From Gemmatimonadota bacterium (GTDB lineage: Bacteria; Gemmatimonadota; Gemmatimonadetes; JACCXV01; JAHWKZ01): a stretch of 58,995 nucleotides of DNA. The stretch spans positions 1 to 58,995 of the forward strand of contig JAHWKZ010000001.1 of the NCBI GenBank assembly GCA_019347645.1, read 5' to 3'. The translations under genes were made by a program, and so were the position numbers. The notes beneath the pieces are model-generated. The model ran no database searches and was not told the origin of the DNA. It saw only the letters and a list, made by a program, of their open reading frames with translations. Shown here one piece after another: positions 29,475 to 57,228 of the stretch. How positions within the stretch are numbered: the first letter of the stretch is position 1; each line of letters begins with the position of its first letter.

Positions 29475-29570
29475 GCCCCAGGCGAGCCGCAGCGACCCGA
29501 CTCTCCACGTACCGCTGCTACCTTCCGGTCCTGACGGGGTTGATGGCGTCGAGCCCTGGGGGCCTGGGGC
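29475..29570 (-). ncRNA. ffs: signal recognition particle RNA (4.5S type)
   Basis: The minus strand contains GUCAGGACCGGAAGGUAGCAGC (E. coli 4.5S: GUCAGGUCCGGAAGGAAGCAGC), closed by GCCCCAGG...CCUGGGGC. It sits in the classic position upstream of dnaX. Confidence 0.85.
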
Positions 29571-29643
29571 ATGCAAGAAACTACCCCCGGGCCGGGGGGC
29601 ACGTCAACGGGCCGCTCGGCCGGCGGCCGCCCGGCGGGTCCGC

Positions 29644-36427: not shown

Positions 36428-36430
36428 CGG

Positions 36431-39532: not shown

Positions 39533-39885
39533 GCCGCCTCCGACCACGACAGGTGGTCCCCGAGCAGCGTGCCCGTGGAACCGAGCGTGCCTTCGGGCAG
39601 CTCGAGCGCGAACCGGGCCTCCCCGTGCCACTTCGAACGCGCTCCGGGCGCCAGTCCGCGGTAGAGGGCCACGACCTCCCGCTCCTCGTCCATGAACGCG
39701 ACGTCGATCGGATACCGCATGCCGTACATGTGGACCCCCCGACAGGGGACCATCAACAGACCCTGCCCCTCCTCCAGTGGGCCGTGACCGATCAGTCCCC
39801 GGAGTCGCGGCCACCACCAGTCGGCCAGGTCCACCTGCTCCCCCAGGACCGACCCCCGGGTCTCGTTGACGACTTTCAAAGCCAT
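39529..39885 (-). CDS. DUF192 (COG1430) family protein
   Basis: Inner ATG at 39885: [33 protein letters not shown]...[25 protein letters not shown]. The ATG shares one base with the tadC TGA. Confidence 0.65.
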
Positions 39886-40814
39886 CACATCAGATCCTTC
39901 ATCTGGGCCAGGATGTGGAGGATCGCCGGCCCGAGGATGACCACGAACATGGCCGGGAAGATGAACAGGACCAGCGGGAAAACCAGCTTGATGGTCGTCT
40001 TCGCCGCCGCCTCCTCGGCCCGCTGGCGGCGCTTCGTCCGCAGCGTGTCGGAGTGGACGCGCAGCGCGGTGGCGACCGAGGTCCCGAACCGGTCGGTCTG
40101 GATCAGCATCGCGGTCAGCGCCTTCAGATCTCCGACCCCGGTCCTCTCGCCGAGGTTGCGGAGCGCCTCGTCCCGGGGCGTACCGTGGCGGATCTCGAAG
40201 TTGGTGAGCATCAGCTCCTCGGCCATCGTCCGGCTCACGTGCTCGATCTCCTCGGAGACCCGCACCAGCGCCTGGTTGAGTCCGAGCCCGGCCTCGACGC
40301 AGACGACCAGCAGGTCGAGCGAGTCGGCCAGCGCCTTCTGGAGCTCGCCCTGGCGCTTGCGGGTGCGGCGCTTGATCGCGTAACGGGGCAGGATCCACCC
40401 GCCGAGCGCCGCGACGCCGGTCACGAGCAGGATCACCCCCGGCCTGGCGCCGAGGATCGTGGCGCCGAAGAAGCCGGCTGCGGCCAGGATCGCGACGGCC
40501 GTAAAGCGGAGCGCCACGTACACGGGGACGGCGGACGGACGGCGATAGCCGGCCTGGACCAGCATTCGCTGGATCTCGCTCCAGTCGATCTTTTTGCTCG
40601 CGACCTTCTCCCCGAACGCCTCCAGCAGCGACTCAAGTCGTTCGCGCTTCTCCTGACGGCGGCGACGTTGCAGCGCGTAGTGCCGGCTCGCGCCCGACTC
40701 GAGTTCGGCGAGGCGCTTCCCGATCGCCCGCGAGCGCGCCGGGGCGAGCGTGGCGACGCTGTAGACGAGCGTCACCACGGACATCATGACCAGAGCGACG
40801 ATGAGATAGACCAT
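39885..40814 (-). CDS. tadC: Flp pilus assembly platform protein TadC (T2SS F family)
   Basis: 309 aa; [22 protein letters not shown] and [19 protein letters not shown]; AGGAG RBS. Confidence 0.88.
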
Positions 40815-40826
40815 GGCCCGCGACTC

Positions 40827-41816
40827 CTAGATCTCGATGTCGATGATCCGTCGGATCGCGAAGAATCCGACCACCTGCAGGAGCAGCGCGACCGAGATCA
40901 TCATCCGCCCCGTAGGCTCGGTGAAGAGGATCGACATGTACTCGTGGTTCATGATCCCGATCAATGCGCCGACGCCGATCGGCAGCACGGCAAGCAGATA
41001 GCCGGTGAAACGGCCCTGGGCGGTGTAGACCCGGACCTGTCGCTGGATGGTGAACCGCTCCCGGATCGTATGGGCGATCTTGTCCAGGATCTCGGCGAGG
41101 TTCCCCCCGACCTCGCGCTGGATCAGCAGCGCGGTGACGAAGATCCGCATGTCGAGCAGGTCGATCCGGTCGGCGAGGGCCAGCATCGAGTCCTCGATGG
41201 AGAGGCCGAATCGCTGTTCCTCGAAGACCCGGCGGAACTCGGCGGAGACGGGCTCGGGGCTCTCCTCGGCGACCATCCCGAGCCCGGTCGAGAAGGCGTG
41301 CCCAGCCCGGATCGCCCGGCCCAGCAGGTCGATCGCCTCGGGGAAGTGCTCCTCGAAGCGCTCGATTCGCTTCGCCTTCTTGCGCTTCACGTACAGGTAG
41401 GGCAGAGTGGCGCCGAACGCGGCCGCGGCCAGGGCCACGATCGCGAGTTTCGTCATCACCCAGGCGGCCAGGCCGAAGCCGACGGCCCCTCCCACCGTGT
41501 ACAGGACGAAGGAGCCGACGCGCCAGTCGAGGTCGGCCTGATCGATCAGGTGCTGGAGGTCCCGGGCGTGGGGGAGCCGCGCCACGAGCGGCTTGAGCCA
41601 CCTCACGTCCGTCAGCTCCTCGTCGCGGAACAGGTCCCCGAAGGGATCCCCCTCCTTCCGGGGACCCTCTCCGGTCAGGCCGCCGAGCCGGTCGACGATC
41701 TCCTTGCGCCGCCTCCGGTCGACCCACCACTCCCACAGGAAGACCAGCGAGAGGACCCCCAGGGCCACCGCCGCGAAGACCAGGATCGCCGGAGCGAGGT
41801 TCGCCGGCGCGCTCAC
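40827..41816 (-). CDS. tadB: Flp pilus assembly platform protein TadB (T2SS F family)
   Basis: GTG at 41816 (GTGA overlap with the tadA stop). [34 protein letters not shown]. Confidence 0.88.
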
Positions 41817-43354
41817 CGCTCCGCCCCGGCGAAGAACTCGGCGTTGGAGAACAGCCCCGCCGGAAGGTCGATGCCGCTGGTGCGCAGCCGCTCGCCGAAC
41901 CGCGGACGGATCCCGGTTGCCTTGAACCGGCCCAGGACCCTTCCGTCCTCGTCGATCCCCTGCCGCTCGAAGGTGAAGATCTCCTGCATGGTGATGATGT
42001 CCCCCTCCATCCCGACGATCTCCGAGATCGACGACAGCTTCCGTCTCCCGTCGGAGAGACGCGAGACCTGGAGCACCACGTCGATCGCCGCGGCGATCTG
42101 CTGGCGCATCGCCTTCTCGGGGAGATTGAGGTTGGCCATCGAGATCATCGTCTCCAGACGGCTGAGCGCGTCCCGCGGGCTGTTGGCGTGGAGGGTCGTC
42201 AACGAGCCGTCGTGGCCGGTGTTCATCGCTTGCAGCATGTCGACCGCCTCCGACCCGCGAACCTCGCCCACGATGATCCGGTCCGGCCGCATCCGCAGCG
42301 CGTTGATCACCAGCTGACGGGCCGTGACCTGCCCCTGCCCCTCGACGTTCGGCGGGCGCGTCTCGCACCGGACCACGTGCGGCTGGCGGAGCTGGAGCTC
42401 GGCCGAGTCCTCGATGGTCACGATCCGCTCGTCGGGCGGGATCGACGACGACAGGACGTTGAGCAGCGTCGTCTTCCCGGCGCCGGTGCCGCCGGAGATC
42501 AGCACGTTCAGCCGGGCCTTCACGATCCCCTGCATGAGCTCCAGCATCGCCGCGGTCAACGTCTCGTAGCGGAGCAGGTCCTCGGCGGAGAGCGCGTCGG
42601 TCTTGAACTTCCGGATCGAGACGTGGGGCCCATCCACCGCCAGCGGCGGGATGATCGCGTTGACGCGCGAGCCGTCGGCCAGGCGGGCGTCGACCATCGG
42701 GCTCGAGTCGTCGATCCGCCGGCCCACCGCCGAGACGATCCGATCGATCACCTGAAGCAGGTGCTTGTTGTCCTTGAACCGGACGTCGGTCCGCTGGAGC
42801 CGGCCGTCCCGCTCGATGAAGACGCGGTCGTAGGTGTTCACCAGGATGTCGGAGACCGACGGGTCCTGCAGCAGCGGCTCGAGGGGCCCGAGGCCGAAGA
42901 TCTCGTTCAGGACCTGCTCGACGAGCGATTCGCGCTCCTCGAAGTTGAGCGGCGCCGATTCGCGGGCCAGGAGGTCCTGGACGACCTTGCGGATCTCGGA
43001 CACGACCATGTCCCGGTCGTGGGAGTCGAGGTTCGAGAGGTTCAGCCGGTCGACGAGCTGTTTGTGGATCCGGCCCTTGATGTCGTGGATGACGCTGCCG
43101 TCGTCGTCGGTTTCGTGCGAGGCGCGCCGGCGCTCCGAGAGTCTCGGTGGAGGCGGGTCCGCGGCGCCTGCGAGCGGTCCGTTCCCTTCCTCCCGGGTCC
43201 GCTCCTCGGCTTCCTCGGAGACGAAGGCCGGAACTCCCTCCTCCTCCTCGACGTCGTCGGGCGACTCGGGCGGCTCCCACGGGAGTCGGTCACGGTTGAC
43301 CTCCCCATCGTCACCGAACAGGGGCACCGAATACGGATCGTGATCGTTCGTCAC
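41813..43354 (-). CDS. tadA: Tad/Cpa secretion ATPase (CpaF/TadA)
   Basis: GTG at 43354 (GTGA overlap with the tadZ stop). [54 protein letters not shown]. Confidence 0.93.
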
Positions 43355-44634
43355 GATTCACCTCCGACCACAGCGGGTGGGGGAAGAAGGAACGCGTCCT
43401 CGATCTCCTGGTCCATCCCGAGCATCGTCTTCATCCGGTCCACCGAGCGGGCGAGCCAGCCCCGCTTCCTCGGGACGGCGCCGGGCACGCCGGCGATCTT
43501 CGCGCCCAGTGCCTGGAGCTCCTCGGAGTAGAGCGACTTGTCGTCGAGGAGCACGGGGCGGCCGGTGTTGATCGCGTAGATGACTGCCTCGTAGTCGTTG
43601 GGCAACGTCCAGTAGACGTCCATGTCCAGCGCCCGCTCGACGTCGTCGAGGGTGATGTCGTTGTCCGGCTGATAGCGGTTGACGATCAGACGGACCTCGT
43701 GGCCCTTCTCGCTCATCCGCTCGAGCAGATGCTGCGCGCGCTGGATGTTCCTGAGCGACGGCAGGTCGACGTTGGCGACGAGGTACACCTCGTCGGCCAG
43801 GTCGAACGTCGCCAGGGTGCGAGCCGTGAAGGAGTTCGAGGTGTCGACCACCACGTAGTCGTAGTGCTGGCGGAGGAAGTGGAGGATCTGGCGGATCTGA
43901 TCCGCCGTCACCGCCTCCGCCTTCTCGGGATGGTACGGCGCGGAGAGGACGTGGACGCCCGTATCGTGGCACTCGATGAACGAGGCCAGGAGTCCGGCGT
44001 CCATCCGATGGACGTTCTTGGCCAGGTCGACGAAGTTGAACCGCGGCTCGATTCCCAGGAACAGCGCGCTCTCGCCGAGCTCGAGGTCGAGGTCGACGAC
44101 CACGGTCTTCTTGCCGGTCAGGCGTTGCATCTGGATGGCCAGGTTTGTGGCCACCGTGGTCGAGCCGGCGCCCCCCTTGGCCGCGAAGAACGCCAGCAGC
44201 TTGCCGGGCTGGCGCGGACCGCTGCCGTTCGCCCCTCCGACCATCTTCTTCCGCGCGCGGGTCACCGCCGCGGCCAGCGACTCCACGGTGACGGGCTTCG
44301 GCAGATAATCGCCGATCCCCGCCTGCATCGCCTGCATCAGGAACTCGGGCGACCCCTCGCCCCCGGCGGCGATCATGCGTCTCTTGGGGTTCGTCTCGGC
44401 GAGGAACTGGGCCAGCTTCACGCCCAGGACCGGGTCTTCCTCGAGGTCGAGGAAGATCAGCTCGGGATCGACGTACCGGAGCTCCTCGAGATGGCCGTGG
44501 CTGATCTTCTTGAACGGCACCACGATCTCGAACTCGATGTCGATCGGGTGGTCGGCGTCGATCCCCTCCCGGACCGCGGTCCGGAAGTCCCCGTCCGTCG
44601 ACACGATCGCGGCGCGTATGGCCTGGCTTTCCAT
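43351..44634 (-). CDS. tadZ: TadZ/CpaE: atypical receiver domain fused to a ParA/MinD-like ATPase
   Basis: Inner ATG at 44634 with GAGGAG RBS. Receiver-like N-terminus, then [18 protein letters not shown] deviant Walker A. Confidence 0.88.
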
Positions 44635-44648
44635 GTTTGCTCCTCTGC

Positions 44649-45797
44649 TTACTCGACGAGGCGGACGAACTTCACCTCGGGGCCCTCGGTGGCGCCGCCG
44701 AGGCCGTCGGAACCCACGCCGACTCCCGTGGCGAACAGAAAGCGTCCCACCACGTCCTTCCCCTTCATCTCCTCGACCCAGAACGCCGTGATGTTGTTGA
44801 AGACGATCGGCTTCTTGCCGGGGTCCACGGGTTGGGTCGGGTCGAACAGCGGAATGTTGGCGACCCGGGGGCTCGCCTTCCACGGCACATATCGGCTGTT
44901 CACCACGCTGTCGGCGGCGAGATCCCAGCTGGCGTCCGGATCCTGGTCGATGAGGTCCTCGACTCCCTGACGCGTGGGTCCGGTCATGTTGCCGTTCTCG
45001 ACCATGTACGCCTCTCCCAACCGGATCACCGAGGTGTTGCAGTTGGCGATGTTCCAGCGGTACCGAGACGCCCCGGTCGCGGGCGACCCGGACACCTGGG
45101 GGACGTCCCACGGGAAGTACCAGGAGGGGACGATCGCTTCCTGCGGCGTCCCCTCCTTGAGGACGATCGGACGACCGAAGTCGTCCTCGTACGTCGTCCC
45201 GTCGGGATCCACCCCGTTCTGCGAGGGCTGGCCGTTTCGGAAGTCGGACCCGTAGCCGGTGTCGGTCGGGTGGTAGTACTCGCCCGAGTCGTACCGATCG
45301 TCGAGGTCGACGTCGTCCCAGGCGTCGGGAACCGCGAAGGGCTTCAGGCACGTGGCGGCCCCGGCCGGCGACGCCTCGGCGGTGGCGCGCGCCGCGACGT
45401 CGACTTCGTCCACGCCGAAGACTCGCGCGAACCAGGTCGCTACGGCGAGCCCGCGATCGGCCGTGCGACGGACCGTCACGGTGACCCGCATGCGAGGCAC
45501 GTCGACCTCCACGTCCTCGGGGACGAGCGCCACCGCGTCCTTCCGGACCGAGTTCGCCGCCGCGTACTGGACCGCGATGTCGCGGGCTCGCTGTTCGTTG
45601 TCCGGCGCTTCGATGAACGAGGCCGCTCCGGCGAGGGCGGCCGAGTCCGCCGCCCGCTGGGCCTCGCCGCGGGCGGTGAACAGCATGCCGAGGTCGATCG
45701 CGAGGGCGAGGATGGACAGCAGCGCCGTCATCGCCACCGCCGCGAGGACGATCGTCGAACCCCGCTCGTCGCGCAGGAGGGACGTCGGCCGCTTCAC
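44649..45797 (-). CDS. tadG: TadG-like pilus assembly protein
   Basis: GTG at 45797 (GTGA overlap with the cpaC stop). ERGSTIVLAAVAMTALLSILALAIDLGMLFTARGEAQRAADSAALAGA is a Tad_N-type N-terminus. Confidence 0.75.
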   Translation of the reverse strand: MKRPTSLLRDERGSTIVLAAVAMTALLSILALAIDLGMLFTARGEAQRAADSAALAGAASFIEAPDNEQRARDIAVQYAAANSVRKDAVALVPEDVEVDVPRMRVTVTVRRTADRGLAVATWFARVFGVDEVDVAARATAEASPAGAATCLKPFAVPDAWDDVDLDDRYDSGEYYHPTDTGYGSDFRNGQPSQNGVDPDGTTYEDDFGRPIVLKEGTPQEAIVPSWYFPWDVPQVSGSPATGASRYRWNIANCNTSVIRLGEAYMVENGNMTGPTRQGVEDLIDQDPDASWDLAADSVVNSRYVPWKASPRVANIPLFDPTQPVDPGKKPIVFNNITAFWVEEMKGKDVVGRFLFATGVGVGSDGLGGATEGPEVKFVRLVE

Positions 45798-47191
45798 TCG
45801 TCCCCCGTCGGTCCCACCGGAGCGGGCGCGATCGGCTCCTTCAGCGCGTCGTCCCAGTCCCACGTCTCCGGCTCGCCGGTCGGGACCGGGGGCGGGGCCT
45901 CCGATGGCTGCACGATCCGCGGCGTCACGAGCACGAGCAGCTCGGTCCGATTCTCGCGGATCCCCTTGCTGCTGAAGAGCCTACCCAGGATCGGGATGTC
46001 TCCCAGGATCGGGAACTTGTCGACGTTCTCGGTGATCGAGTTGTCGAGGAGTCCTCCGATCGCGAACGTCTGGCCGTCCCGAAGCTCGACCTCGGTGGAG
46101 GCCCTCCGGCTCAGCAGGGTGGGGATCTGGAAGCCCGACAGCTGGAGACCGTTCGCGAAATCGAGGCTCGACACCTCCGGGGCGACGGTCAGCCGGATGT
46201 TCCCCGCGTTGGTGATGTGGGGCGTGAAGTTGAGCCGGACCCCGAACTCCTTGAACAGGATGGTGATGTTCGTGCCGCCCGCGGTCGCCTGCGGGACGGG
46301 ATAGGGGAACTCCCCGCCCGCCAGGAACGACGCCTCCTGCCCGTCCATGGCCAGGAGGTTGGGCTCGGCCAGGCTTCGGAACATCCCCTTCGCGGAGAGG
46401 GCCCGGATGAACGCCCCGACGCTCTCGCCCTCGTGGAACAGATAGAGGTTCACGACGTCGCTGAAGGTCTGCTCCGGCCCGACCGGGTCGTTGGCGAAGT
46501 TGCCCGCCGGCGGGGTGTGCTGGCCCGTGGAGAGGGCCCCCTCGTCGTCGCCCCGCGGGTTCAGCGGATCGAACCGGAGGATGTTGATCCCGTACTCCTT
46601 GATGGCGGTGCGGTTGACCTCCGCGAAGCGGACCTGGAGGAGGATCTGGTCGGGGGCCGGGACCTGCAGGTTGTCGATGACCGTCGCGCCGGTCGCCGCG
46701 GCGATCTCCAGCGCCCGTCGCGCCACCGAAGCCTCCTTCAGCGTACCCGACAGGATGTAGGTGTCGCCGCTGGCGGTGACGTCGATCCGCTCGTCGGGGA
46801 ACAGCGCCAGGAAGTGGCGCTCGAGGGCCTCGGCGTCGACGGTGACCTCCACCTCGTGGAGCCGCCGTGCCCCCACCTGATCCCACAGGACCAGGGTGGT
46901 GGTGCCGGTCTGCTTCCCATGGATCATCACCTCGGTCGGCGAGACGACGACCGCCTCGGCGACGTCGGCGTCGGCCACCGAGACCCGGCGCAGCGTGGTG
47001 CCGTTGGAGACCAGGGCGGCCTTGCCCACCGCGACGGTGACGGATCGATAGTCGGAGCCGGCGTCCTGACCGGCCACCGCCGGCGGCCGCGCCAGGCCAA
47101 ACGCGACGACGCCCAGGGCGAGCGCGACCAGGCGCGCCGGCCTCCGATGCCGATGGAGGCGGCCGCGAGTCCTACTCTCGTTGGTTTTCAT
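45794..47191 (-). CDS. cpaC: Flp pilus secretin CpaC/RcpA
   Basis: Signal peptide, BON-like region, and a secretin C-domain (EPNLLAMDGQEASFLAGGEFPYP, DKFPILGDIPILGRLFSS). GGGAGG RBS. Confidence 0.92.
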   Translation of the reverse strand: MKTNESRTRGRLHRHRRPARLVALALGVVAFGLARPPAVAGQDAGSDYRSVTVAVGKAALVSNGTTLRRVSVADADVAEAVVVSPTEVMIHGKQTGTTTLVLWDQVGARRLHEVEVTVDAEALERHFLALFPDERIDVTASGDTYILSGTLKEASVARRALEIAAATGATVIDNLQVPAPDQILLQVRFAEVNRTAIKEYGINILRFDPLNPRGDDEGALSTGQHTPPAGNFANDPVGPEQTFSDVVNLYLFHEGESVGAFIRALSAKGMFRSLAEPNLLAMDGQEASFLAGGEFPYPVPQATAGGTNITILFKEFGVRLNFTPHITNAGNIRLTVAPEVSSLDFANGLQLSGFQIPTLLSRRASTEVELRDGQTFAIGGLLDNSITENVDKFPILGDIPILGRLFSSKGIRENRTELLVLVTPRIVQPSEAPPPVPTGEPETWDWDDALKEPIAPAPVGPTGDE

Positions 47192-47203
47192 GCGGTTGCC
47201 TCC

Positions 47204-48031
47204 CTAGAAGGTGGTTTCGGTTCGCTTGTCGCCGTTGTACGTGACGATGGTGGTGCCCCGGCTGACCGGGGCCGACGAGCGGCGCGCGGTGCGCGGCGCG
47301 GGCGCCACCACGGCCGCGCCCACGAGCGTCTTGGCTTTCACGCCGTCGGTCTCGACCTCGGCCTGGTCGAGGGTATTGCGGAGCGCGAGCTGGATGCGAC
47401 CCTCGGTGGACGACAGCGTCAGCGTCTCGGCCTCCTCGGGCGAGACGAGGAGCGTGATGACGGTCACCGTCTGCGGCTCTCCGTCCACGTCCCGCTTGTA
47501 CTCCTGGCCGGCCGCCAGGACCTGGACGTTCTGAAGGACGAGCCGGCTGGCGGCCTCCTCCCGCTCGTTGGTCGGGTTCAGGGTCACCAGAACGTCGACG
47601 CGCGTGCCGGCCCTGATGAATCCGGCCACGCCGATGACTTCGTCGACCTTCACGCTCACCGCCCGCTTCCCCTCGGGGATCACGATCGGCAGGCCGCCGC
47701 CCTCCTCCTTCGTCGCGAGCTTCGCCGCCAGGAGAGGCTCGTTGGCCGACACGTGCTGGATCAGGCCCCGGCCGACGACCGCGTCCACCGTCCCCGCGTA
47801 TCCGGGCGGCACGAATCGCGCGGGCCAGTCCACGACCTTCACGTCCGCGGAGGTGAGCACGCGACCGAGCTCGAGGTCCCGCGCGGCCACGACCACCCGG
47901 GACGACTCGCTGGCGGTCGCCGCCTTCGGGCTCAACGGCCGGTCGAGATGGTTCAGCGCGAGCCAGCCCGCGGCGCCGCCCGACACGAGCGCCATCACGA
48001 GCGCGATCCACTTCCGACGCTTCCTTCTCAT
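47204..48031 (-). CDS. cpaB: Flp pilus assembly protein CpaB/RcpC
   Basis: MRRKRRKWIALVMALVSGGAAGW anchor, SAF-like VVVAARDLELGRVLTSADV. AGGAGGAG RBS. Confidence 0.88.
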   Translation of the reverse strand: MRRKRRKWIALVMALVSGGAAGWLALNHLDRPLSPKAATASESSRVVVAARDLELGRVLTSADVKVVDWPARFVPPGYAGTVDAVVGRGLIQHVSANEPLLAAKLATKEEGGGLPIVIPEGKRAVSVKVDEVIGVAGFIRAGTRVDVLVTLNPTNEREEAASRLVLQNVQVLAAGQEYKRDVDGEPQTVTVITLLVSPEEAETLTLSSTEGRIQLALRNTLDQAEVETDGVKAKTLVGAAVVAPAPRTARRSSAPVSRGTTIVTYNGDKRTETTF

Positions 48032-48053
48032 CGTTCTCCTCCTGCGTGGGCGT

Positions 48054-48503
48054 CTATTCGTTCCGCATCGTGACGGCGGTCGACAGGCTGATCGCCCCCG
48101 GGACCGTGGATGACTCCCCGAGCAGGGAGACGACCGGGCCCAGGAACGCGAACTCGTAGGGATATTCGATCTCCACCTGGCTCGGGGTGCCGACCCCGTT
48201 CCCCTGGCCGGTGATCGTGATCGTTCCCAGCGCGGGGTCGAGCGCGGCGTCGGCGAGATAGCTCTCGATCGTCGTGCGCACGTCCGACTCCGCGTTGGTC
48301 GGAATGACCGCGGCGCGAGCGCCCTCGCGGGCCGCGTTGGTGAGGACCTGGTAGACGTTCCAGGCGCGTCCCATCTCGAAGATGCCGACCAGCAGGGCCA
48401 GCAGGATCGGCAGGACGATCGCCAGCTCGACGAGCGACTGGCCGCGCTCGCCCCGTCCCTCGGGGCGCCGCGCGAGAAGGGTGTAGCCGCTCACGCCCAC
48501 CAC
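48054..48503 (-). CDS. tadE: TadE-like pseudopilin
   Basis: ERGQSLVELAIVLPILLALLVGIFEMGRAW TadE-type N-terminus. Several in-frame GTG starts at 48494-48503 overlap the cpaA stop. Confidence 0.85.
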   Translation of the reverse strand: MVGVSGYTLLARRPEGRGERGQSLVELAIVLPILLALLVGIFEMGRAWNVYQVLTNAAREGARAAVIPTNAESDVRTTIESYLADAALDPALGTITITGQGNGVGTPSQVEIEYPYEFAFLGPVVSLLGESSTVPGAISLSTAVTMRNE

Positions 48504-49000
48504 CCGACGAGCGCGCCGAGCGCGATCGCCACCCCGTAGGGGACGGCGAGCGCGCCCGGCGTCGCGAGTGTGCGGACGGGAACGGCGCCTCTCCCCGGCA
48601 GGACCCTCCGGACGAGGGCCCGGCAGTGAGCGAGGGTCTCGCCGATCGCGCCGTGGCGGGCGGCGAGGGTGATCGCCATCGCCCCACCCGCGACCGCGGT
48701 CACCAGAAGGACGACGGGAAGGCCGTCGATTCCGACGAACGCGCCCACGGCCGCCAGCAGCTTGGCGTCCCCGCCACCGAGCCCGCCCGCCAGGACGAGG
48801 GGCAGGGCCAGCGCCAGCGCCACTCCCGCGCCGAGGACGCCGACGGCGAACGCGTCCACGCCTTCCGGAACGCGCAGAGCCAGCCCGGCCACCAGGCCGG
48901 TCAGGGTGAGCGCGTTCGGGATGCGTCGGCTCGCGACGTCGGTCGCGACGGCGGCCGCCACCAGGGCGACGAGAAGGAGGGTCTGGAGCGCGTCGGTCAT
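48491..49000 (-). CDS. cpaA: prepilin peptidase CpaA/TadV (A24 family)
   Basis: Inner ATG at 49000: MTDALQTLLLVALVAAAVATDVASRRIPNALT and GGLGGGDAKLLAAVGAFVG. Confidence 0.85.
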   Translation of the reverse strand: MTDALQTLLLVALVAAAVATDVASRRIPNALTLTGLVAGLALRVPEGVDAFAVGVLGAGVALALALPLVLAGGLGGGDAKLLAAVGAFVGIDGLPVVLLVTAVAGGAMAITLAARHGAIGETLAHCRALVRRVLPGRGAVPVRTLATPGALAVPYGVAIALGALVGWWA

Positions 49001-49031
49001 GGGCCCGATCTTCGTGCGAGGGGAAAGAGTG

Positions 49032-49066
49032 GATCGGGGCCCGCTCCCCCGAGACGAACCCCGATC
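49032..49066 (-). terminator. 8-bp hairpin after the pilin genes (possible partial terminator)
   Basis: GATCGGGG (49032-49039) pairs with CCCCGATC (49059-49066), about 30 nt after the flp stop and followed on the minus strand by CACUCUUUCCCC. Confidence 0.3.
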
Positions 49067-49095
49067 CTTTGTCGCGGCCTGAACGGGCGCTCCGG

Positions 49096-49263
49096 TTAGC
49101 CGAGCGCCGCAGCGATGTTTTCGAAGACGGTCATGATGTTCCCGCCCAGCAGGGTGACCGCCGCGATCACCACGATGGCGATCAACGCGATCAGCAGGGC
49201 GTACTCGGCGAGGTCCTGACCGGCCTCGTCGTTCCACAGGGCGTTCCAGAGTAGTGCCAGCAT
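49096..49263 (-). CDS. flp: Flp family type IVb pilin (downstream copy, 55 aa)
   Basis: GGAGGAAACGCA-ATG. MLALLWNALWNDEAG-QDLAEYALLIALIAIVVIAAV has the Flp G/xxxxEY processing motif plus a hydrophobic helix. Confidence 0.9.
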   Translation of the reverse strand: MLALLWNALWNDEAGQDLAEYALLIALIAIVVIAAVTLLGGNIMTVFENIAAALG

Positions 49264-49307
49264 TGCGTTTCCTCCCCGGCGCTCAGGCCGCGTTGGGGTG
49301 TCTGAGA

Positions 49308-49517
49308 TCAGCTGAACGGCAACGTGGCGACGATGTCGTTGTACATCGCCACGAGCGCGTCGCCGAACAGGGCGACGGCGCCCACCACGACGAGCGCGAT
49401 GAGCCCGATCAGGATCGCGTATTCCGCGAGGTCCTGACCGTCCTCGTTCCGCCGATCTCCCGGCGCGTCCCGCGACGGGGTGCAGTCCTGGATCTCGAGC
49501 GGAGCTCGCTGGCTCAT
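49308..49517 (-). CDS. flp: Flp family type IVb pilin (upstream copy, 69 aa, long leader)
   Basis: GAGGAAACG-ATG. MSQRAPLEIQDCTPSRDAPGDRRNEDG-QDLAEYAILIGLIALVVVGAV. Confidence 0.85.
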   Translation of the reverse strand: MSQRAPLEIQDCTPSRDAPGDRRNEDGQDLAEYAILIGLIALVVVGAVALFGDALVAMYNDIVATLPFS

Positions 49518-49930
49518 CGTTTCCTCGTTCGGAGGTCGTGATGTCTGCCGGTGACCGCGGGAAGAAGGAGCATCGGCCGTACCGAACCGGCCGGGCCCGA
49601 TCGAGAGGTCGGGCCGGGTCGAAGAGGCGATTTGGAGCCGCGAGCGGGCGGGCGGGAAGAGGCGGCGAGATCGCATCGGAAGGACGTTGCCGCGACGGAA
49701 AGGGTCTTCCATCGGCGAGGAACTTCGGTACCGATCCGGCGTCGGCCGACGGGAGCGGACGCGGGGGCATGGCTCCGTCGAAGATCCTGCGTCCTTCCGT
49801 GCAACCGGCTCGGAGCACTGTACTTAGGAGACTTTTGGACGGTATTCTGCCGATCCGGCTTGCATTCTGCCGGCTTCGGGGTGCCACGGGAGGGTCCAAG
49901 GGGCGCGTCGGGCTGCGCGGCGGCGGCCGC

Positions 49931-50929
49931 TCAGGCCTCGATCTCGTACCGTTTGACCTTGTTGAGGAGGGACTTGTAGCTGATCTCGAGGTCGGCGGCT
50001 GCCCGCTTCTTGTTCCACTTCGCCGCCTGGAGCGCGCGTTCGATCGCCTGCGACTCGATCCGGGCGACTACCCGGGCCACCATCTGCTTGAGGGGCAGGC
50101 CGGAGTCGAGGATCTCCTCATCGGTGGAGCCACCCGGTCCTTTCTTGCTGCCCAGCTCCTCGCGGATCGTTTCCTCGTCTTCGATCACCAGGAAGCGCCG
50201 GATCACCCGCTCGAGCTCGCGGACGTTGCCCGGCCAGCGGTACCCCTGCAGGAACTTGACGAACCCGGTCCGCAGGACGCGGATCTTCGAACCGTAGAAC
50301 GTGCCGTACTTCTGAAGGATGTGGTTGGCGAGCAGCGGGACGTCCTCCGGACGGTCGCGCAGCGGCGGGACCTCGATCCGAACGGCTCCACCGACCGCCC
50401 CCCACTCCTTCTCGAGCTTGTCGAGCGCGGAGTTTCCTAGCGACGGCTGCTCGCAGGAGAGGACGAACCGCGGCTCCGAGCCGTCCGCGGCGCGCTGACG
50501 CTTCCACTCGCGCAGCCGCTCGCTCAGCTCTGCGGGAAGGGATTCGATGCCGTGGATGTAGAGGGTGCCCCCGCCGACCGCCTCGAGCTTGCCGCCGTCA
50601 CCGCCGTCGAACAGCTCCCTTTCGATCGCGGCGCTCGGGATCGCGTAGCAGTTGAGCGAGGCGAGGGGACGCGAGGCCCGACTCGAGAGATCGTGGATCC
50701 CGCGGGCGAGGATCTCCTTGCCGACGCCGCGCTCGCCGCACAGCACCACGGTCAGCGAAGTATCGGCCACCTGGCCGAGGCGCTCGCGCGCGGCGATCAC
50801 GCGCTCGTCGACGCTCAGCAGGAAGTTCGGATGACCGCCGATCTCCCAGTAGGCGGACGCCGGGGGGTCGGGGCTACCGTCCGTTCGCGCGGGGGATGCG
50901 GGCTCGGCAGTCACGGCGCGGCTAGACAA
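49931..50929 (-). CDS. sigma54-activator-like AAA+/Fis-HTH regulator lacking a GAFTGA loop and the Walker B acidic pair
   Basis: VVLCGERGVGKE Walker A, VPPLRDRPEDVPLLANHIL, PGNVRELERV, and a C-terminal IERALQAAKWNKKRAAADLEISYKSLLNKVKRY HTH. There is no receiver domain. TTG start at 50929, or GTG at 50914. Confidence 0.8.
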   Translation of the reverse strand: MSSRAVTAEPASPARTDGSPDPPASAYWEIGGHPNFLLSVDERVIAARERLGQVADTSLTVVLCGERGVGKEILARGIHDLSSRASRPLASLNCYAIPSAAIERELFDGGDGGKLEAVGGGTLYIHGIESLPAELSERLREWKRQRAADGSEPRFVLSCEQPSLGNSALDKLEKEWGAVGGAVRIEVPPLRDRPEDVPLLANHILQKYGTFYGSKIRVLRTGFVKFLQGYRWPGNVRELERVIRRFLVIEDEETIREELGSKKGPGGSTDEEILDSGLPLKQMVARVVARIESQAIERALQAAKWNKKRAAADLEISYKSLLNKVKRYEIEA

Positions 50930-50972
50930 TGCAATCCCCGTACCACCTGAACTCCCGGGGGCGATCAGCGGA

Positions 50973-51860
50973 TCAGCGGGGGCCGCGCGACAACAGGACG
51001 TCGGCGTGGCGATCGGCTTCGAAGGCTCCCAGAAACTCTCGTCCCGCGGTCGGGCGACCGCCGAAGAGGTGCAGTGCTCCGGCCACGAACGCGCTATCGG
51101 GATCCCCGTCCGCGGCTCGCCGGAGGGAAGCCTCCAGGACCGTCACGAGGCGCGCCTCGTCCCCCCACAGCCGACTCCACCCCAGGTCCAGCGGCAGCCA
51201 GGCCGGCCATCGGTCGACGCTCTGGCGCCACGCCTGGGCGGCGGCCGCGTCCTCCCCCATTCCGGCGAGCGCCGCACCCAGGCCCAGGTATCCGTGGGGC
51301 AGCTCGGGCGCGGCGACGGTCGCCCTCCGATACGCCGTGGCCGCGTCCAGCTCGCGGCCTTCGAGCATCGCGCGGTCGCCCCGGCGGATCCACCCCGCCG
51401 CCTCGGCGATGCGGCCGTCCTTCCTCAGCGCGGTCCATGCCGAACGATACCGGTCGAAGATCCACCCGTCGTAGGCGTACAGACCCCATGGAGAGAAGAA
51501 CGGGTGCGGCTCCACCCTGGGGACGAGCCCGGCCGCCGCGAACCAGCTCGACCAACGGTCGACGCCGTACGCGTGGGCCGGTCCGATCCCGATCCAGTGC
51601 GGCTGCCACCTCGCCGCGACTTCCATCCACGCGGTCGGGAGCACGGCCGCACGAGCGCGGGCTGCGTCGGCGGTGGCGGCCCGGCTGGAGGCCTCGGGGA
51701 GAGGCATGACGCCCTCCTCGAGGGACTTCTCCCGGGTCTCTCGCTCGACCTCGCTCGATCCGATCGCCGGGCTCAGCGGCCGCACGTCCTGGGCGATCGC
51801 CGGGACCCGCGGGAATCCCACGAGCCCGAGCGCCACGACTGCGATCCAGGTCTTTGGCAT
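50973..51860 (-). CDS. secreted hypothetical protein with TPR-like C-terminal region
   Basis: MPKTWIAVVALGLVGFPRVPAIAQD signal; GGAGG RBS; helical-repeat-like C-terminal half. Confidence 0.5.
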   Translation of the reverse strand: MPKTWIAVVALGLVGFPRVPAIAQDVRPLSPAIGSSEVERETREKSLEEGVMPLPEASSRAATADAARARAAVLPTAWMEVAARWQPHWIGIGPAHAYGVDRWSSWFAAAGLVPRVEPHPFFSPWGLYAYDGWIFDRYRSAWTALRKDGRIAEAAGWIRRGDRAMLEGRELDAATAYRRATVAAPELPHGYLGLGAALAGMGEDAAAAQAWRQSVDRWPAWLPLDLGWSRLWGDEARLVTVLEASLRRAADGDPDSAFVAGALHLFGGRPTAGREFLGAFEADRHADVLLSRGPR

Positions 51861-51892
51861 CCCCCGACCTCCGCTCCTATCTTAGGTTGCCC

Positions 51893-52651
51893 ATGTGTCC
51901 CCTTCCACTCCTTCCCGTCCTCGCGGCGCTCGTCGCGTCGCTCGCGACGGGATGCGGAGGGGTCGAGGAGGACCGACCCCAGCCGGATCCCGAAGACGCC
52001 GGGGAAGAGATCGCGACGATCCCGTTCGCCGAGCGTGGCCTGGCCCGAGACGATTTCCTCCTCGTCTCGGGGGCGGGCGATACGATGCGCTTCACCACCG
52101 TGGCCGGAGACGGGCCGCGAATCCGCCTCGTTCGCACCCTCCGGACGCCGAGCGGCACCGACAGCATCGCGGCGCTGATCGACGCCCGCACCAAGGAACC
52201 GGTCGCCTCCTACCAGCGCCGATTCGCCGACGACGGCGACGTCATCGTCGCCCACGTCTCGTACGGGACCGGCTTCGAAGGCCAGGCCCGGCTCAGGCTG
52301 ACCACCCCCCGGGGATCGGGAAGCGAGAACCTTCGAACTCCCTCTCCGGTCCTCGACGCCGCTCAGCTCCCCCAGACCTTCTCCGCGCTCGACTTCTCGC
52401 GCCCCGACACCATCTCGTTCAACTACGTCGCTCCCTTCGAGAAGAGGGCGCTGGCCGCGCGCGTCGAGATCGGCGGCCTCGACACCCTCCGCATCGATGA
52501 TGGAGCGATTCCGGCCCATCGGATCACGATCCGGGTCTCGGGCCTGGTCGAGCGCGCGTGGTTCGCCGCTCCACCCGGCGGTTTCCGCCTGCTGCGGTAC
52601 GAGGAGTCGACGCGCGGCGTGACGTGGAGCCGCCCTTCGGCTCCCGAATGA
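51893..52651 (+). CDS. hypothetical lipoprotein
   Basis: MCPLPLLPVLAALVASLATGCGG lipoprotein signal (an alternative TTG start lies at 51854). Its stop overlaps the next ATG (ATGA). Confidence 0.55.
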   Translation: MCPLPLLPVLAALVASLATGCGGVEEDRPQPDPEDAGEEIATIPFAERGLARDDFLLVSGAGDTMRFTTVAGDGPRIRLVRTLRTPSGTDSIAALIDARTKEPVASYQRRFADDGDVIVAHVSYGTGFEGQARLRLTTPRGSGSENLRTPSPVLDAAQLPQTFSALDFSRPDTISFNYVAPFEKRALAARVEIGGLDTLRIDDGAIPAHRITIRVSGLVERAWFAAPPGGFRLLRYEESTRGVTWSRPSAPE

Positions 52652-53880
52652 CCTCGCTTCGTCGAGCCGCCGCGGCCCTCGTGGTCGCCGCCACTCTCGC
52701 CTCGCCGGGGCCGCTGCCGGCCCAGCAGAGGGCTCCCGCGTCGCTGGTCGCCGCCGCGCGGGCGGTGACCCTGGAAATCGCCGGACTGCGGGGCCTCGCC
52801 GTCCGCGAGCCGGTCGACTTTCGAGTGAGCGACCGGGCGACGATCCGCGCGTACGCCCGCGCCTCCCTGGAGCGCGAGATGCCCGCGGGGCGATGGGCCG
52901 CTTACGAGGCGCTTCTCTCGCACACCGGGCTCGTCCCCGACACGGTGGAGCTCTCCGACCTCGTCCTCTCGCTCTACACCGAACAGATCGCGGGCTACTA
53001 CGATCCGGCCAGGAAAACGTTCTATCTGGCGGATTGGTTGCCCCGACTCCTCCAACGGGCGGTGGTCGCGCACGAGGCCACCCATGCGCTGCAGGATCAG
53101 CACTTCGATCTGGATCGCTGGCTGAGCGAGCTCTCGCCGACGGAGGACGGGGCGCTCGCGCGCGCCGCCGTCGCGGAAGGGGACGCCATGGCCACGATGC
53201 TCGCCTACCTGCTGGTCCCGACGGGAGCCTCGCTGGACGACCTCCCGGGGGTGGGCGAGCTGCTGCGTCGGAACGCCGGGGCGAGCCGGGCGGCGTTTCC
53301 GACGTTCGACGCGGCGCCCCGGGCGCTCCAACGGCTGCTCCTCTTCCCGTACGTGGAGGGAGCGGACTTCGTCCTCGCATCGCGGCGGCGCGGGGGCTGG
53401 AGGGCGGTCGATCGACTCTACCGGGAGCCGCCGGAATCCAGCGAGCAGATCCTCCATCCCGAGCTCTACTGGGAGACCCGGGACGACCCGCGGGCGGTGG
53501 AACCACCCACCGGCGCGCCCGGGGACTCGCTCCTGACGTCGGGGTCGTGGGGCGAGTTCGGCCTCTCTCTCGTGCTCGAGGCCGCGCTGGAGGATTCCAC
53601 CGACGCCCGCGAGGCCGCCCGCGGCTGGGACGGCGATCGCTACGCCTTGTGGCGCGCCCCGGACGGAGCGCTCGCCTATCGCTGGTCGCTGGTCTGGGAC
53701 TCGACGGATGCGGCCGAGCGCTTCGCCGAAGCCTACGCCCGGGCGACCGTAGCTCGCTTCCCCGGGTCCGCTCGCTTCACGACCGGAGAGGGACGCTTCG
53801 AGTTCGAGGGGTCGGGGCGGGCCCTGGACTTGACGTGGAGCGGGGACCGCGTCGAGGTTCGGGAGCACTCCGCGCCATAG
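52648..53880 (+). CDS. secreted HExxH metallopeptidase-like protein (MA-clan-like)
   Basis: MTSLRRAAAALVVAATLASPGPLPAQQ signal, then VVAHEATHALQDQH followed by AVAEGDAMA (a candidate third ligand Glu). Confidence 0.55.
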   Translation: MTSLRRAAAALVVAATLASPGPLPAQQRAPASLVAAARAVTLEIAGLRGLAVREPVDFRVSDRATIRAYARASLEREMPAGRWAAYEALLSHTGLVPDTVELSDLVLSLYTEQIAGYYDPARKTFYLADWLPRLLQRAVVAHEATHALQDQHFDLDRWLSELSPTEDGALARAAVAEGDAMATMLAYLLVPTGASLDDLPGVGELLRRNAGASRAAFPTFDAAPRALQRLLLFPYVEGADFVLASRRRGGWRAVDRLYREPPESSEQILHPELYWETRDDPRAVEPPTGAPGDSLLTSGSWGEFGLSLVLEAALEDSTDAREAARGWDGDRYALWRAPDGALAYRWSLVWDSTDAAERFAEAYARATVARFPGSARFTTGEGRFEFEGSGRALDLTWSGDRVEVREHSAP

Positions 53881-53939
53881 TGATGTTGAACGTTCCGGGG
53901 ATCTTCCGCGTCCACACGAACGAGATCAGACTCCCAGTG

Positions 53940-55283
53940 ATGCTTCGCGTCGTACTCGCCATCGCCCTCGGCCTGACGCCGGCTCTCGCCGCGCCCGCGC
54001 CGGCACTCGGCCAGAGAGCTCCGGCCGACACCGTCGCGCTGTCGCTCCAGGAGGCGCTCGACCTCGGCCTGCGGCGCAACCCGCAGGTCCATCAGGCCGC
54101 CGCCGATCGGGCGGCCGTGGGCGCGGGGTTGTGGGAAGCGTGGGGGACCCTCCTGCCGCAGGTGAGCGCGCAGGGGCAGATCCAGCGCAGTCAGCAGGGC
54201 GCCTTCGTTCTGGCAGGCACGGAATTCCAGAGCCCCACGACCTACACGGGCGCCTTCCAGTGGGACCTGACCCATTCGCTGCTCGACAGCGGTCGGGATC
54301 TCTTTCGCATCAAGGAGGCTCGGGCGGAGGTGGATGGCGCGCTCGCTCGCTATGACGAGACGGCGCTCGAGACCGCCTCCGACGTCAAGACCCAGTACCT
54401 GAGCGTCCGGCGTCAGGAGGCTCTCGTCCGGCAGGCCGAGCGCGAGATCGATCGCCGCGAGGGGCACCTCCGTCTGGCCGAAGGGCGCTACGAGGTCGGG
54501 GCGGTGACGCGCTCCGACGTCCTCCAGGCGCGGCTGTCGGTGACCCAGGGCGAGGTGGCCCTGCTCCAGGCGCTCCAGGATGCCGAGGAGGCCCGTCTCG
54601 CGCTCCGGCGGCTTCTGGGGGGATCGCTGCCCGGCGGGCCGCTCGCCCTCACGTCCGACTTCACCGTCTTCGAGCCCGAGTACGAACCCGACGCGCTCGT
54701 CGCCCGCGCGCTGGGAGACCACCCGGGCCTGCGGGAGAGCCGGGCCGCCCAGCGGGCCGGCGAGGCTCAGGTTTGGATCGCCCGCTCGAGCTACCTTCCC
54801 ACGTTCCAGTTCCAGTACTCGCTCGCCCGATCGGTAGTCGACACGGTGGAGTTCTCCTTCAGCGACTGGAACGATCGTGACTTCTGGGTCGTCAGCATGA
54901 GCTGGCCGCTGTTCGGTCGCTTTGAGCGATACCATCAGACGAGCCGGGCGAGTGCCAACCTCCGGACGGCGAAGGAAGAGGAGCGCGCCCGAGCGCTCCA
55001 GATCGAGGAGCAGGTCCGGGTGGCTCACTCCAGGCTCCACACCGCCTATGCCACGTACGAGGCCAACGTCACCGCGTTCGAGCTCGCGCGAGAGGATCTC
55101 CGGCTCGGCGAGGCGCGGTACGAGACGGGCACGGGTTCGTTCGTCGACCTCCTCGACGCCCGGGTCCGGGCGGCGGAGGCCGAGACGAACCTGATCGCCT
55201 CCACCTACGACTTCCACATCGCGCTGGTCGACCTGGAACGGGCCACCGGGAGGGAGCTGATGCCCGAAGGAGCCGTCCGGTGA
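53940..55283 (+). CDS. TolC-family outer membrane efflux protein
   Basis: Start at ATG 53940: MLRVVLAIALGLTPALAAPAPALGQ. LSLQEALDLGLRRNPQV and two coiled-repeat halves. Confidence 0.85.
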   Translation: MLRVVLAIALGLTPALAAPAPALGQRAPADTVALSLQEALDLGLRRNPQVHQAAADRAAVGAGLWEAWGTLLPQVSAQGQIQRSQQGAFVLAGTEFQSPTTYTGAFQWDLTHSLLDSGRDLFRIKEARAEVDGALARYDETALETASDVKTQYLSVRRQEALVRQAEREIDRREGHLRLAEGRYEVGAVTRSDVLQARLSVTQGEVALLQALQDAEEARLALRRLLGGSLPGGPLALTSDFTVFEPEYEPDALVARALGDHPGLRESRAAQRAGEAQVWIARSSYLPTFQFQYSLARSVVDTVEFSFSDWNDRDFWVVSMSWPLFGRFERYHQTSRASANLRTAKEEERARALQIEEQVRVAHSRLHTAYATYEANVTAFELAREDLRLGEARYETGTGSFVDLLDARVRAAEAETNLIASTYDFHIALVDLERATGRELMPEGAVR

Positions 55284-56518: not shown

Positions 56519-57228
56519 ACGACTCCCGGCCGATCATCCAGGTCCGCGGGCTGACGAAGATCTACCGGATGGGCGGCGAGGAGATCCACGCCCTGGACGG
56601 CGTCGACCTCGACATCGAGCGGAACGAATACGTTGCCATCATGGGCCCCTCGGGCTCCGGCAAGTCGACGCTCATGAACCTGATCGGCTGCCTCGATACC
56701 CCGACCGCGGGCGACTACTGGTTGAACGAACGGAAGGCGAGCGAGCTGGACGACGACGAGCTGGCGCGAGTCCGCAACCGTGAGATCGGTTTCGTCTTCC
56801 AGACCTTCAACCTGCTGCCCCGCGCCACCGCTCTCCACAACGTCGAGTTGCCGCTCGTCTACGCGGGGATCTCCCGTGAGGAGCGGTTGGAGCGGGCCCG
56901 CGCCGCGCTGGAGGCCGTCGACCTGATCGACCGCGCCGACCACAAGCCGAGCGAGCTCTCCGGCGGTCAGCGTCAGCGGGTGGCGATCGCCCGCGCGCTG
57001 GTGAACCGCCCGTCCATCCTCCTGGCCGACGAGCCGACCGGGAATCTCGACTCGAAGACGAGCGAGGAGATCATGGTGGTCTTCGAGAGCCTCCACGCGG
57101 GCGGGAACACGATCCTGCTGGTCACCCACGAGCGCGACATCGCGGGCCACGCGCAACGCCAGATCCACCTGCTGGATGGAAAGATCGAGACGGATACGGC
57201 CGCCTCCCCCGCGCCCGCGACCCACTAG
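56515..57228 (+). CDS. MacB/LolD-type ABC ATP-binding protein (no fused or adjacent permease)
   Basis: GTG start (GTGA overlap). [52 protein letters not shown]. Confidence 0.9.

Follow-up and report, generated by a model that had tools for sequence, protein, structure and literature searches.

Transcription by sigma-54 RNA polymerase is held to require, without exception, an ATP-hydrolyzing activator with a GAFTGA motif, and such activators, known as enhancer-binding proteins (EBPs), are usually encoded beside their target promoters. The window analyzed here, which is the whole of the 58,995-nt contig JAHWKZ010000001.1 from a Gemmatimonadota bacterium, encodes an EBP-derived regulator (49931..50914, minus strand) next to the flp pilin genes of a tad pilus locus. 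Across the whole clade to which it belongs, this neighboring activator has lost every element needed for activation while the -24/-12 promoters and the enhancer-like sites appear to stay under selection. What, then, does such a protein do? We tentatively favor, at a little under even confidence, a non-catalytic EBP derivative that binds enhancer sites and modulates sigma-54-dependent flp/tad transcription powered by an unlinked ATPase.

Loss of the activation machinery

In a canonical EBP, the L1 loop with its GAFTGA motif engages region I of sigma-54, the Walker B glutamate and sensor I catalyze ATP hydrolysis, and arginine fingers act in trans. How much of this does the regulator keep? The mechanically called open reading frame (ORF; 49931..50929, minus strand) starts at TTG 50929 and specifies 332 aa; its position and the residues quoted from it in the original prediction (ELFDGGDGGKLEAVGGGTLYIHGIESL and GERGVGKE) match the translation exactly. 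The true start is probably GTG 50914, giving 327 aa, because a conserved -24/-12 promoter fills the 16 bases directly upstream of TTG 50929. The product from GTG 50914 is identical to NCBI MBW3660058.1. Pfam matches Sigma54_activat (PF00158; E 1.5e-17) over profile positions 6-113 of 168 only, AAA_lid_14 (E 7.8e-20) and HTH_8 (E 1.3e-8). The last is a Fis-type helix-turn-helix (HTH; residues 289-328 in the 332-aa numbering, 49946..50065, minus strand) whose recognition helix, SYKSLLNKV, is invariant in both clades of the family. No Pfam domain lies N-terminal to the AAA+ core; about 25 variable, low-confidence residues precede its N-loop, and Pfam, the alignment and the structural model all place no REC, ACT/PAS or other signal-receiving domain there. 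The protein is thus what had been proposed, an EBP-derived AAA+ core with a Fis-type HTH and no sensory domain. Many NCBIfam EBP equivalogs match it, all far under their cut-offs (for example, 134 bits against 503). A sequence search of the PDB ranks VpsR first (5.5e-28), followed by NifA, ZraR, DmpR (deposited as CapR), NtrC1, FleQ and PspF, and Foldseek with the AlphaFold2 model returns EBP structures only, led by NtrX of Brucella and including NtrC1, DmpR, VpsR, FleQ and PspF.

The region that should contact sigma-54 is missing. In phmmer pairwise alignments to NifA and ZraR, GAFTGA falls in a 10-residue gap and GGTLYIHGI stands opposite GGTLFLDEI; aligning the protein with seven canonical EBPs in MAFFT yields an identical register. 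In the model (mean predicted local distance difference test score 86.3), a five-residue turn links helix 99-107 to helix 113-118 where the L1 hairpin is expected. Residues 105-129 (ELFDGGDGGKLEAVGGGTLYIHGIE; 50543..50617, minus strand) carry both the stub of this deletion and a Walker B motif with His-Gly for Asp-Glu. Pairwise alignments, multiple alignment and model agree on both losses, so the motifs were not misregistered when they were first reported. Within Walker B, LYIHG lies opposite LFLDE; the Asp position holds His in clade 1 and Asn, Ser, Arg or Gly in clade 2, and the Glu position is Gly or Asn. The degeneration also goes further than the original prediction saw. The L2 insertion before sensor I falls about 7 residues short of its canonical length and is poorly conserved, the sensor-I Asn has become a Glu (E160) that is invariant in both clades, and the arginine-finger segment FReDLyyRL is replaced by a variable segment, LEKEWGAVGG, that has no Arg, so that both fingers are lost.

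Other parts are intact. Walker A (GERGVGKE, residues 65-72; 50714..50737, minus strand) is kept with its Lys invariant in the family, and this Lys (K71) and the sensor-II Arg (R237) are invariant in 28/28 aligned members. The proposal that the protein binds ATP without hydrolyzing it fits a pocket in which the Walker A Lys, the sensor-II Arg and the N-loop are conserved and the Walker B acids are gone, and canonical contact with sigma-54 would be impossible, as had also been suggested, with L1/GAFTGA absent. Because L1, L2, the Walker B acids, the sensor-I Asn and the arginine fingers have been lost, the regulator is predicted to be unable to remodel the sigma-54 holoenzyme (E-sigma-54), with ATP hydrolysis and promoter opening both absent. 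Binding of cyclic di-GMP in the manner of FleQ or VpsR was considered and found no support: the equivalents of what we take to be the FleQ ligand residues (LFRS, the Arg-Asn after Walker A, and ExxxR) are either not conserved or common to all EBPs.

A regulator family under apparent selection

Are these losses peculiar to one assembly? A search of 5.8 billion proteins sorted the homologs into three tiers: the first holds 58 clusters (59-100% identity), the second is another clade, with 10 clusters (41-45%), and the third, no more than ~37% identical, consists of canonical EBPs. The family thus comprises 68 clusters, and all of its named members come from Gemmatimonadota metagenome-assembled genomes (MAGs). 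A gap around it also shows among 1.84 billion representatives at 50% identity, which include only two family members (528 and 476 bits), with the next match at 274 bits. The GAFTGA-like and Walker B motifs are absent from 68/68 clusters, and Walker A is kept in all but one fragment. Hence, the losses are a family trait and not a sequencing artifact.

The two clades, which are 41-45% identical overall, differ unevenly along the protein. Identity between them is 0.5-0.6 at the N-loop, Walker A, the beta strands, the lid and the HTH. It falls to 0.13-0.20 at the stubs of L1 and L2 and in the helix that once bore the arginine fingers, no better than at the interdomain linker; nowhere in the core is conservation lower than in this helix, and clade 2 has low-complexity insertions at the L1 position. 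Because the nucleotide pocket, scaffold and HTH are conserved in both clades while the L1, L2 and arginine-finger regions vary, nucleotide binding, the scaffold and DNA binding are probably still in use, and sigma-54 contact and inter-subunit catalysis have evidently been freed from constraint. The family is, judging by this pattern, under selection rather than decaying.

The same pattern bears on whether the regulator could open sigma-54 RNA polymerase by itself in some unconventional way, for example with E160 as a relocated catalytic residue and another surface making the contact. It is the only EBP-like gene beside two sigma-54-type promoters with enhancer-like sites at every locus, and E160 is invariant in both clades. 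DVUA0100, whose GAFTGA is heavily substituted (GVATGV), is still a predicted activator (PMC4641369). However, the entire L1 hairpin is absent here, which goes beyond substitution, and L2 is truncated; the L1 stub is unconstrained, to the point of tolerating the clade 2 insertions, and both arginine fingers are lost. We know of no precedent for self-activation by such a protein, and we consider it highly improbable.

Two conserved -24/-12 promoters

The promoters around the regulator were compared across family loci. A family-specific N-terminal alignment recovered 17 true loci from metagenomes, which were added to seven initial loci and two further look-ups; individual loci carry numbers beginning with L. 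A contig search with the full-length family alignment (pattern WPGNxRELE) gave, among the matches listed, only canonical EBPs at 28-36% identity (L004-L083).

In seven loci, the spacers between the regulator and flp can be aligned almost only at a block, TGG(T/C)ACG-N5-TGC, that lies ~50-60 nt ahead of flp1 and reads as GG-N10-GC, the exact register of a sigma-54 promoter. In the window this element, P_flp (CGGTACGGCCGATGCT; 49569..49584, minus strand), has a predicted transcription start near 49558, giving a 41-nt leader with GAGGAA ahead of the flp1 ATG. A second element, P_reg (TGGTACGGGGATTGCA; 50930..50945, minus strand), abuts the regulator ORF, with a predicted start near 50919. P_reg is the single best match, with one mismatch, in a scan of the whole window for the consensus TGGCACG-N4-TTGCW, and it is present in all seven initial loci. 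With the wider set, P_reg was found at the same position in 25/25 loci with enough upstream DNA, and P_flp in 19/20, the exception being L105. Comparable 16-mers occur in the family loci at a background of ~2e-4 per nucleotide-strand, that is, ~0.008 expected per 40-nt positional window. Information profiles anchored on the elements have sharp peaks only at GG, AC and (T)TGC, with flat flanks.

The two clades differ in how the regulator gene sits behind P_reg. In clade 1 (L001, L002, L084-L103 and L105; 50912-50945 in the window), a GTG or ATG start lies 13-16 nt past the -24/-12 element. This spacing makes the regulator transcript nearly leaderless, with a predicted leader of ~3-6 nt (~5 nt before GTG 50914 in the window). 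In clade 2 (L003, L104), the leader is 75-100 nt. Francke et al. 2011 (PMC3162934) list both sigma-54 and EBPs for Gemmatimonas aurantiaca, the type species of the phylum. From position, register and conservation, we infer that P_reg and P_flp are used by sigma-54. The original prediction had made the regulator a sigma-54-independent repressor or activator of the flp promoter; this part is not supported, since both that promoter and the regulator's own are of the conserved -24/-12 type.

The closest alternative, which corresponds to the original prediction, is that the regulator is an ordinary atypical EBP (like VpsR, NtrX, TyrR, HupR or the NtrC of Rhodobacter and Caulobacter), that is, a nucleotide-binding, non-hydrolyzing factor acting directly, as activator or repressor, on a sigma-70-type flp promoter, with the -24/-12 element secondary or served by an unrelated pathway. 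Its leading matches argue for this, since VpsR in sequence and NtrX in fold are both GAFTGA-less and free of sigma-54 (PMC6158489). However, VpsR-type promoters are explicitly without -24/-12 elements (PMC6158489), whereas here, in 19/20 loci, the -24/-12 element is the sole conserved promoter-like element ahead of flp, with purifying selection on GG and TGC. No sigma-70 consensus promoter was found at 49000-51100 of the window, although the housekeeping-sigma consensus of the Gemmatimonadota may differ, so that sigma-70-type promoters could have been missed. A relaxed scan (≥8/12) likewise found no match in 16/19 flp spacers; the remainder are L088 and L101, which reach just 8/12 and away from any sensible position, and L105, which reaches 10/12. 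Weighing this with the evidence from palindromes and from L105 below, we consider direct action at a sigma-70-type promoter unlikely, albeit a serious competitor.

Enhancer-like palindromes and the L105 exception

Upstream of P_flp lies a 16-bp palindrome with the consensus TTCC(G/A)CG..CG(T/C)GGAA. The window copy (TTCCTCGCCGATGGAA; 49707..49722, minus strand), an exact TTCC-N8-GGAA, begins 138 nt upstream of the P_flp -24/-12 element. Exact palindromes are strikingly localized: 12 copies occur in 148 kb of family loci, and 12/12 fall within the 5.3 kb made up by the regulator-flp spacers. They begin 52-204 nt upstream of the -24/-12 element. The distance is variable and unphased, which suits an enhancer and not a class I or class II site at a sigma-70 promoter, and thus argues against direct action of the atypical-EBP kind. 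Copies with no more than two mismatches most often stand 22 or 44 bp apart, a spacing to be expected if dimers stack along the same helical face. The regulator HTH most likely binds these palindromes, as far as their linkage and placement can tell.

A second conserved dyad, motif A (TGCAA-N6/7-YYGCARAAT), is found 11-97 nt past the regulator stop codon in most loci; in the window (ATGCAAGCCGGATCGGCAGAAT; 49844..49865, minus strand) it lies 65 nt past the stop. It was rejected as a sigma-54 promoter (it has no GG, and its spacing is off by one) and as a sigma-70 promoter (its hexamers are just 9 nt apart). Upstream of P_reg, copies of TTCC-N8-GGAA with one mismatch abut the -24 element in one subclade only (L089-L094 and L103), and GGAA-N6-TTCC occurs in three loci. 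Autorepression through these sites is not claimed, as they are too patchy.

L105, a paralogous locus whose regulator is the most divergent member of clade 1 at 59% identity, is the one locus that lacks P_flp. It keeps a strong -24/-12 element ahead of the regulator (TGGCACAATGATTGCA). Its flp spacer (L105:4963-5300) has 51% G+C in a locus of 70% G+C, carries no GG-N10-GC element, and instead contains TTGACA-N18-TAGCAT (10/12) and two copies of TGCTACCAT. An exact TTCC-N8-GGAA palindrome is retained. The flp promoter of L105 thus looks like one that switched from the -24/-12 type to a sigma-70-like type. The palindrome was kept despite the change, and so it travels with the regulator and not with sigma-54, which makes L105 the strongest indirect indication that the regulator binds the palindrome. 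The regulator can probably work at a sigma-70-type promoter, to go by this locus. Thus, L105, with a sigma-70-like promoter, no -24/-12 element at flp and a palindrome near -82, is also the locus that speaks most directly for the atypical-EBP alternative.

Proposed role

How might a protein with these features act at P_flp? Activation must come from another protein, because the regulator has lost the needed parts while the sigma-54 promoters stay conserved; a trans-acting EBP presumably exists. Under the reading that we favor, modulation by a non-catalytic EBP derivative, the regulator would retain its nucleotide pocket, an oligomerization-competent AAA+/lid scaffold and its Fis-type HTH, and would occupy the palindromes upstream of P_flp through the HTH. 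An unlinked canonical EBP would supply the ATPase work in trans. Occupancy by the regulator, possibly set by its bound nucleotide, would gate the firing of P_flp by that EBP, and the regulator's own sigma-54-dependent, near-leaderless gene would close a feedback loop.

Several points weigh against this proposal. First, no partner EBP was identified: neither the ~185 kb of family loci nor the 59-kb window contains a second EBP gene. The 584-aa ORF after tadC (38063-39817, minus strand) was examined as a possible active EBP, given weak Walker A matches to Sigma54_activat, and rejected, because it belongs to the classic clade of AAA ATPases (Walker A GDSGNGKT, Walker B LIIDDF) and shows no EBP features; its true start is probably well inside the 584 aa. 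Second, the analysis covered a single contig of this MAG, too little to judge whether rpoN is present, and the family is known only from uncultured organisms, through MAGs and metagenomes. Third, palindrome binding by the regulator is deduced from linkage only, and with motif A as a second conserved dyad, the assignment of protein to site is ambiguous. Fourth, the L105 palindrome is centered near -82 of a sigma-70-like promoter, a position that looks like that of a class I activator and would suit a transcription factor working independently of sigma type. Finally, the invariant E160 in sensor I and the His that clade 1 invariably carries at the Walker B Asp might support residual or unconventional catalysis.

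Would the regulator help or hinder its partner? We lean slightly toward a gating or antagonistic role rather than recruitment, since a mixed ring would be poisoned by subunits that have no arginine fingers. The near-palindromes that abut the -24 element of P_reg in one subclade were also counted for gating; sites placed as enhancers would be, together with the L105 site, were counted for a positive role. The opposite sign defines a sub-branch of the same proposal, in which the regulator is a DNA-binding adaptor that brings an active EBP to the tad promoters, as with FleQ/FleT or HrpR/HrpS. EBPs without a DNA-binding domain exist (FlgR, CtcC), and the recruited protein might be of this kind. 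Palindromes at enhancer-like positions with in-phase 22- and 44-bp spacing, the conserved AAA+/lid scaffold, the absence of a linked active EBP, and the L105 site at about -82 with its hint of a positive role would all suit an adaptor. From the established AAA+ mechanism, however, a subunit that has neither arginine fingers nor Walker B acids would be expected to inactivate the ATP sites of its neighbors, conservation within the core is lowest in the helix that bore the inter-subunit arginine fingers, and no candidate partner was seen in the family loci or the window. Recruitment therefore seems to us distinctly unlikely.

In the broader form of the proposal, either activation is split between a site-specific dead "reader" and a separate ATPase, or a dead paralog serves as a dominant-negative brake under sigma-54-dependent feedback; we regard this as possible and hold it with some doubt. 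If it is true, a split reader and ATPase, or a built-in brake, would give enhancer-dependent transcription an architecture that has not been described before, and L105 would be a lineage caught after its target promoter had switched to the sigma-70 type.

The tad locus and its surroundings

The window holds a complete tad locus in the order TPR gene, regulator, flp1, flp2, prepilin peptidase, TadE, RcpC, secretin, TadG-like, TadZ, TadA, TadB and TadC, all on the minus strand. The pilins are flp1 (49308..49517, 69 aa), with a Pfam Flp_Fap match (E 3.8e-5) under the gathering score and synteny with annotated Flp genes, and flp2 (49096..49263, 55 aa), whose Flp_Fap match (36.8 bits) is over the cut-off. 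The tad operon (39885..49000), assigned from Pfam and from a gene order like that of L001 and L002, comprises the prepilin peptidase (48491-49000), TadE (48054-48503), RcpC/CpaB (47204-48031), the secretin (45794-47191), the TadG-like gene (44649-45863), TadZ (43351-44604), the TadA ATPase (41813-43354), TadB (40827-41736) and TadC (39885-40814). The component set of a Tad/Flp (type IVc) pilus is thus present, with Pfam matches for all but TadB, which has none and owes its assignment to position alone. The next gene upstream of the regulator, in the same orientation, encodes a TPR protein with a signal peptide (50973..51860), possibly a TadD-like pilotin; a TPR gene has the matching position in L001, L003, L084, L085 and L104. 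The link between the regulator and flp that had been proposed is firm in its synteny: the order regulator, two flp genes, tad genes recurs in 10/10 related loci with gene calls, both clade 2 loci included, and the tad genes have stayed intact over deep divergence.

A few nucleotides past the predicted P_flp start, the flp1 leader contains a block, ~A(A/C)GGCA-N-GACC(A/C)(A/C)CACGA (~49525-49555, minus strand), that also occurs in L001, L002, L084, L088 and L094-L096. It could act at the RNA level, as a leader element, or be one more site at which a protein binds. A riboswitch (for example, one for cyclic di-GMP) in the flp leader or spacer was rejected, as there is no Rfam match. In L102 (2906-3500), an extra small lipoprotein-like gene sits between the regulator and flp. 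Downstream of the insertion, this locus keeps both the flp -24/-12 element (TGGTACGGCGTCTGCG) and a dyad like motif A.

Other neighbors recur with the locus. A 1431-aa sensor kinase with HAMP, PAS, HisKA and HATPase domains (31110-35405, minus strand) lies a few kilobases beyond tadC, followed by a REC-like 172-aa ORF (30086-30604, minus strand). In L105 (1-3513), a kinase of equal length (1431 aa) is directly upstream of the regulator with a DUF192 gene between them, and a DUF192 gene also follows tadC in L001. This kinase may feed sensory signals into the tad system. An ExbB-ExbD-TonB-like gene set (35402-37345) lies on the tad strand, the minus strand, with the AAA ATPase on one side and the sensor kinase on the other. 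On the plus strand, a cluster divergent from the TPR, regulator and tad genes (51854-57228) encodes DUF3108-like and DUF8575/DUF6782 (putative metallopeptidase) proteins, an outer-membrane factor, a membrane-fusion protein and an ABC ATPase. It is kept beside the tad genes in most loci (L001, L003, L084-L086 and L104) and may be functionally coupled to the pilus locus.

Elsewhere in the window are two RNA genes. One is for tRNA-Sec (13700-13794, minus strand; Rfam, 74.4 bits), and the organism therefore probably uses selenocysteine. The other is for the bacterial small signal recognition particle RNA (29473-29569, minus strand; 55.3 bits), which overlaps the 5' end of the mechanically called dnaX ORF (27738-29576), so that the real dnaX start must lie further downstream.

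Comparison with known systems

The locus is a natural system for asking how promoter specificity and ATPase work can separate. It also bears on the origin of atypical EBPs, and in particular on whether the activator degenerates first or the promoter switches to sigma-70 first. There are practical consequences too. The annotations "sigma-54-interacting transcriptional regulator" and "NtrC family response regulator" mislead for this family, and regulon pipelines that filter on GAFTGA would leave sigma-54 promoters of the P_reg and P_flp type without an activator.

GAFTGA-less EBPs are well documented (TyrR, PhhR, HupR, HsfA, NtrX, VpsR and the NtrC of Rhodobacter and Caulobacter) and act at sigma-70 promoters without -24/-12 elements (PMC6158489; PMC10274813). 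Like these proteins, including the NtrC of Rhodobacter capsulatus, the regulator combines an AAA+ core and a Fis-type HTH with the absence of L1/GAFTGA. Like VpsR, which has Asn-Asp and no detectable ATPase activity (PMC6158489; PMC10274813), it has a non-consensus Walker B. Unlike them, it has no receiver, ACT/PAS or other N-terminal domain, its degeneration is more complete, reaching L2, sensor I and both arginine fingers, and it forms a separate, narrow clade no more than ~37% identical to the other EBPs recovered. Its own promoter and that of its neighbor are also of the -24/-12 type, the L105 flp promoter excepted.

Canonical EBPs offer a second comparison. PspF, of Group V, has the same two modules, AAA+ and HTH, with its N-terminus directly at the N-loop, and its fold matches that of the regulator at a template modeling score of ~0.7 (normalized to the target). 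Unlike the regulator, PspF has GAFTGA, a Walker B Asp-Glu and the arginine fingers R162 and R168, and it activates sigma-54. The position of the regulator recalls that of pilin activators. For example, DVU2114 of Desulfovibrio vulgaris is a canonical sigma-54 response regulator that controls Flp/Tad-like pilins (PMC3333781), and in DVU2114 and PilR-type systems, as here, an EBP-family gene stands beside Flp/Tad-like or type IV pilin genes with a -24/-12 promoter and an upstream dyad (PMC3333781). However, those proteins are canonical response-regulator EBPs with GAFTGA.

For gating or recruiting, the analogies are systems in which a second protein modulates the ATPase: HrpR/HrpS, FleQ/FleT, and the antagonists PspA, HrpV, FleN and NifL. 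Both partners in HrpR/HrpS and FleQ/FleT keep GAFTGA, unlike the regulator, and PspA, HrpV, FleN and NifL are not EBP homologs. To our knowledge, a natural dead, DNA-binding EBP paralog in such a role is undescribed, and literature searches returned no Tad-associated GAFTGA-less EBP and no dead EBP at sigma-54 promoters.

Where does this leave the family? On the side of the sigma-54 activators, the regulator has PF00158 and lid homology, Walker A and sensor II, a Fis-type HTH, and an adjacent -24/-12 element with a dyad; it lacks GAFTGA, the Walker B hhhhDE, the arginine fingers, the sensor-I Asn and the L2 insertion. On the side of the atypical EBPs, it shares the absence of the sigma-54 contact motif, and has neither sigma-70 targets as its rule nor an N-terminal signal domain. 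Because it lacks the defining features of a sigma-54 activator and its adjacent promoters are not of the sigma-70 type that defines atypical EBP targets, it is filed outside both classes. The family combines the position and cis-architecture of a pilin EBP with an AAA+ domain more degenerate than that of any atypical EBP named here, and it is a variant of the atypical-EBP kind that belongs to neither established family.

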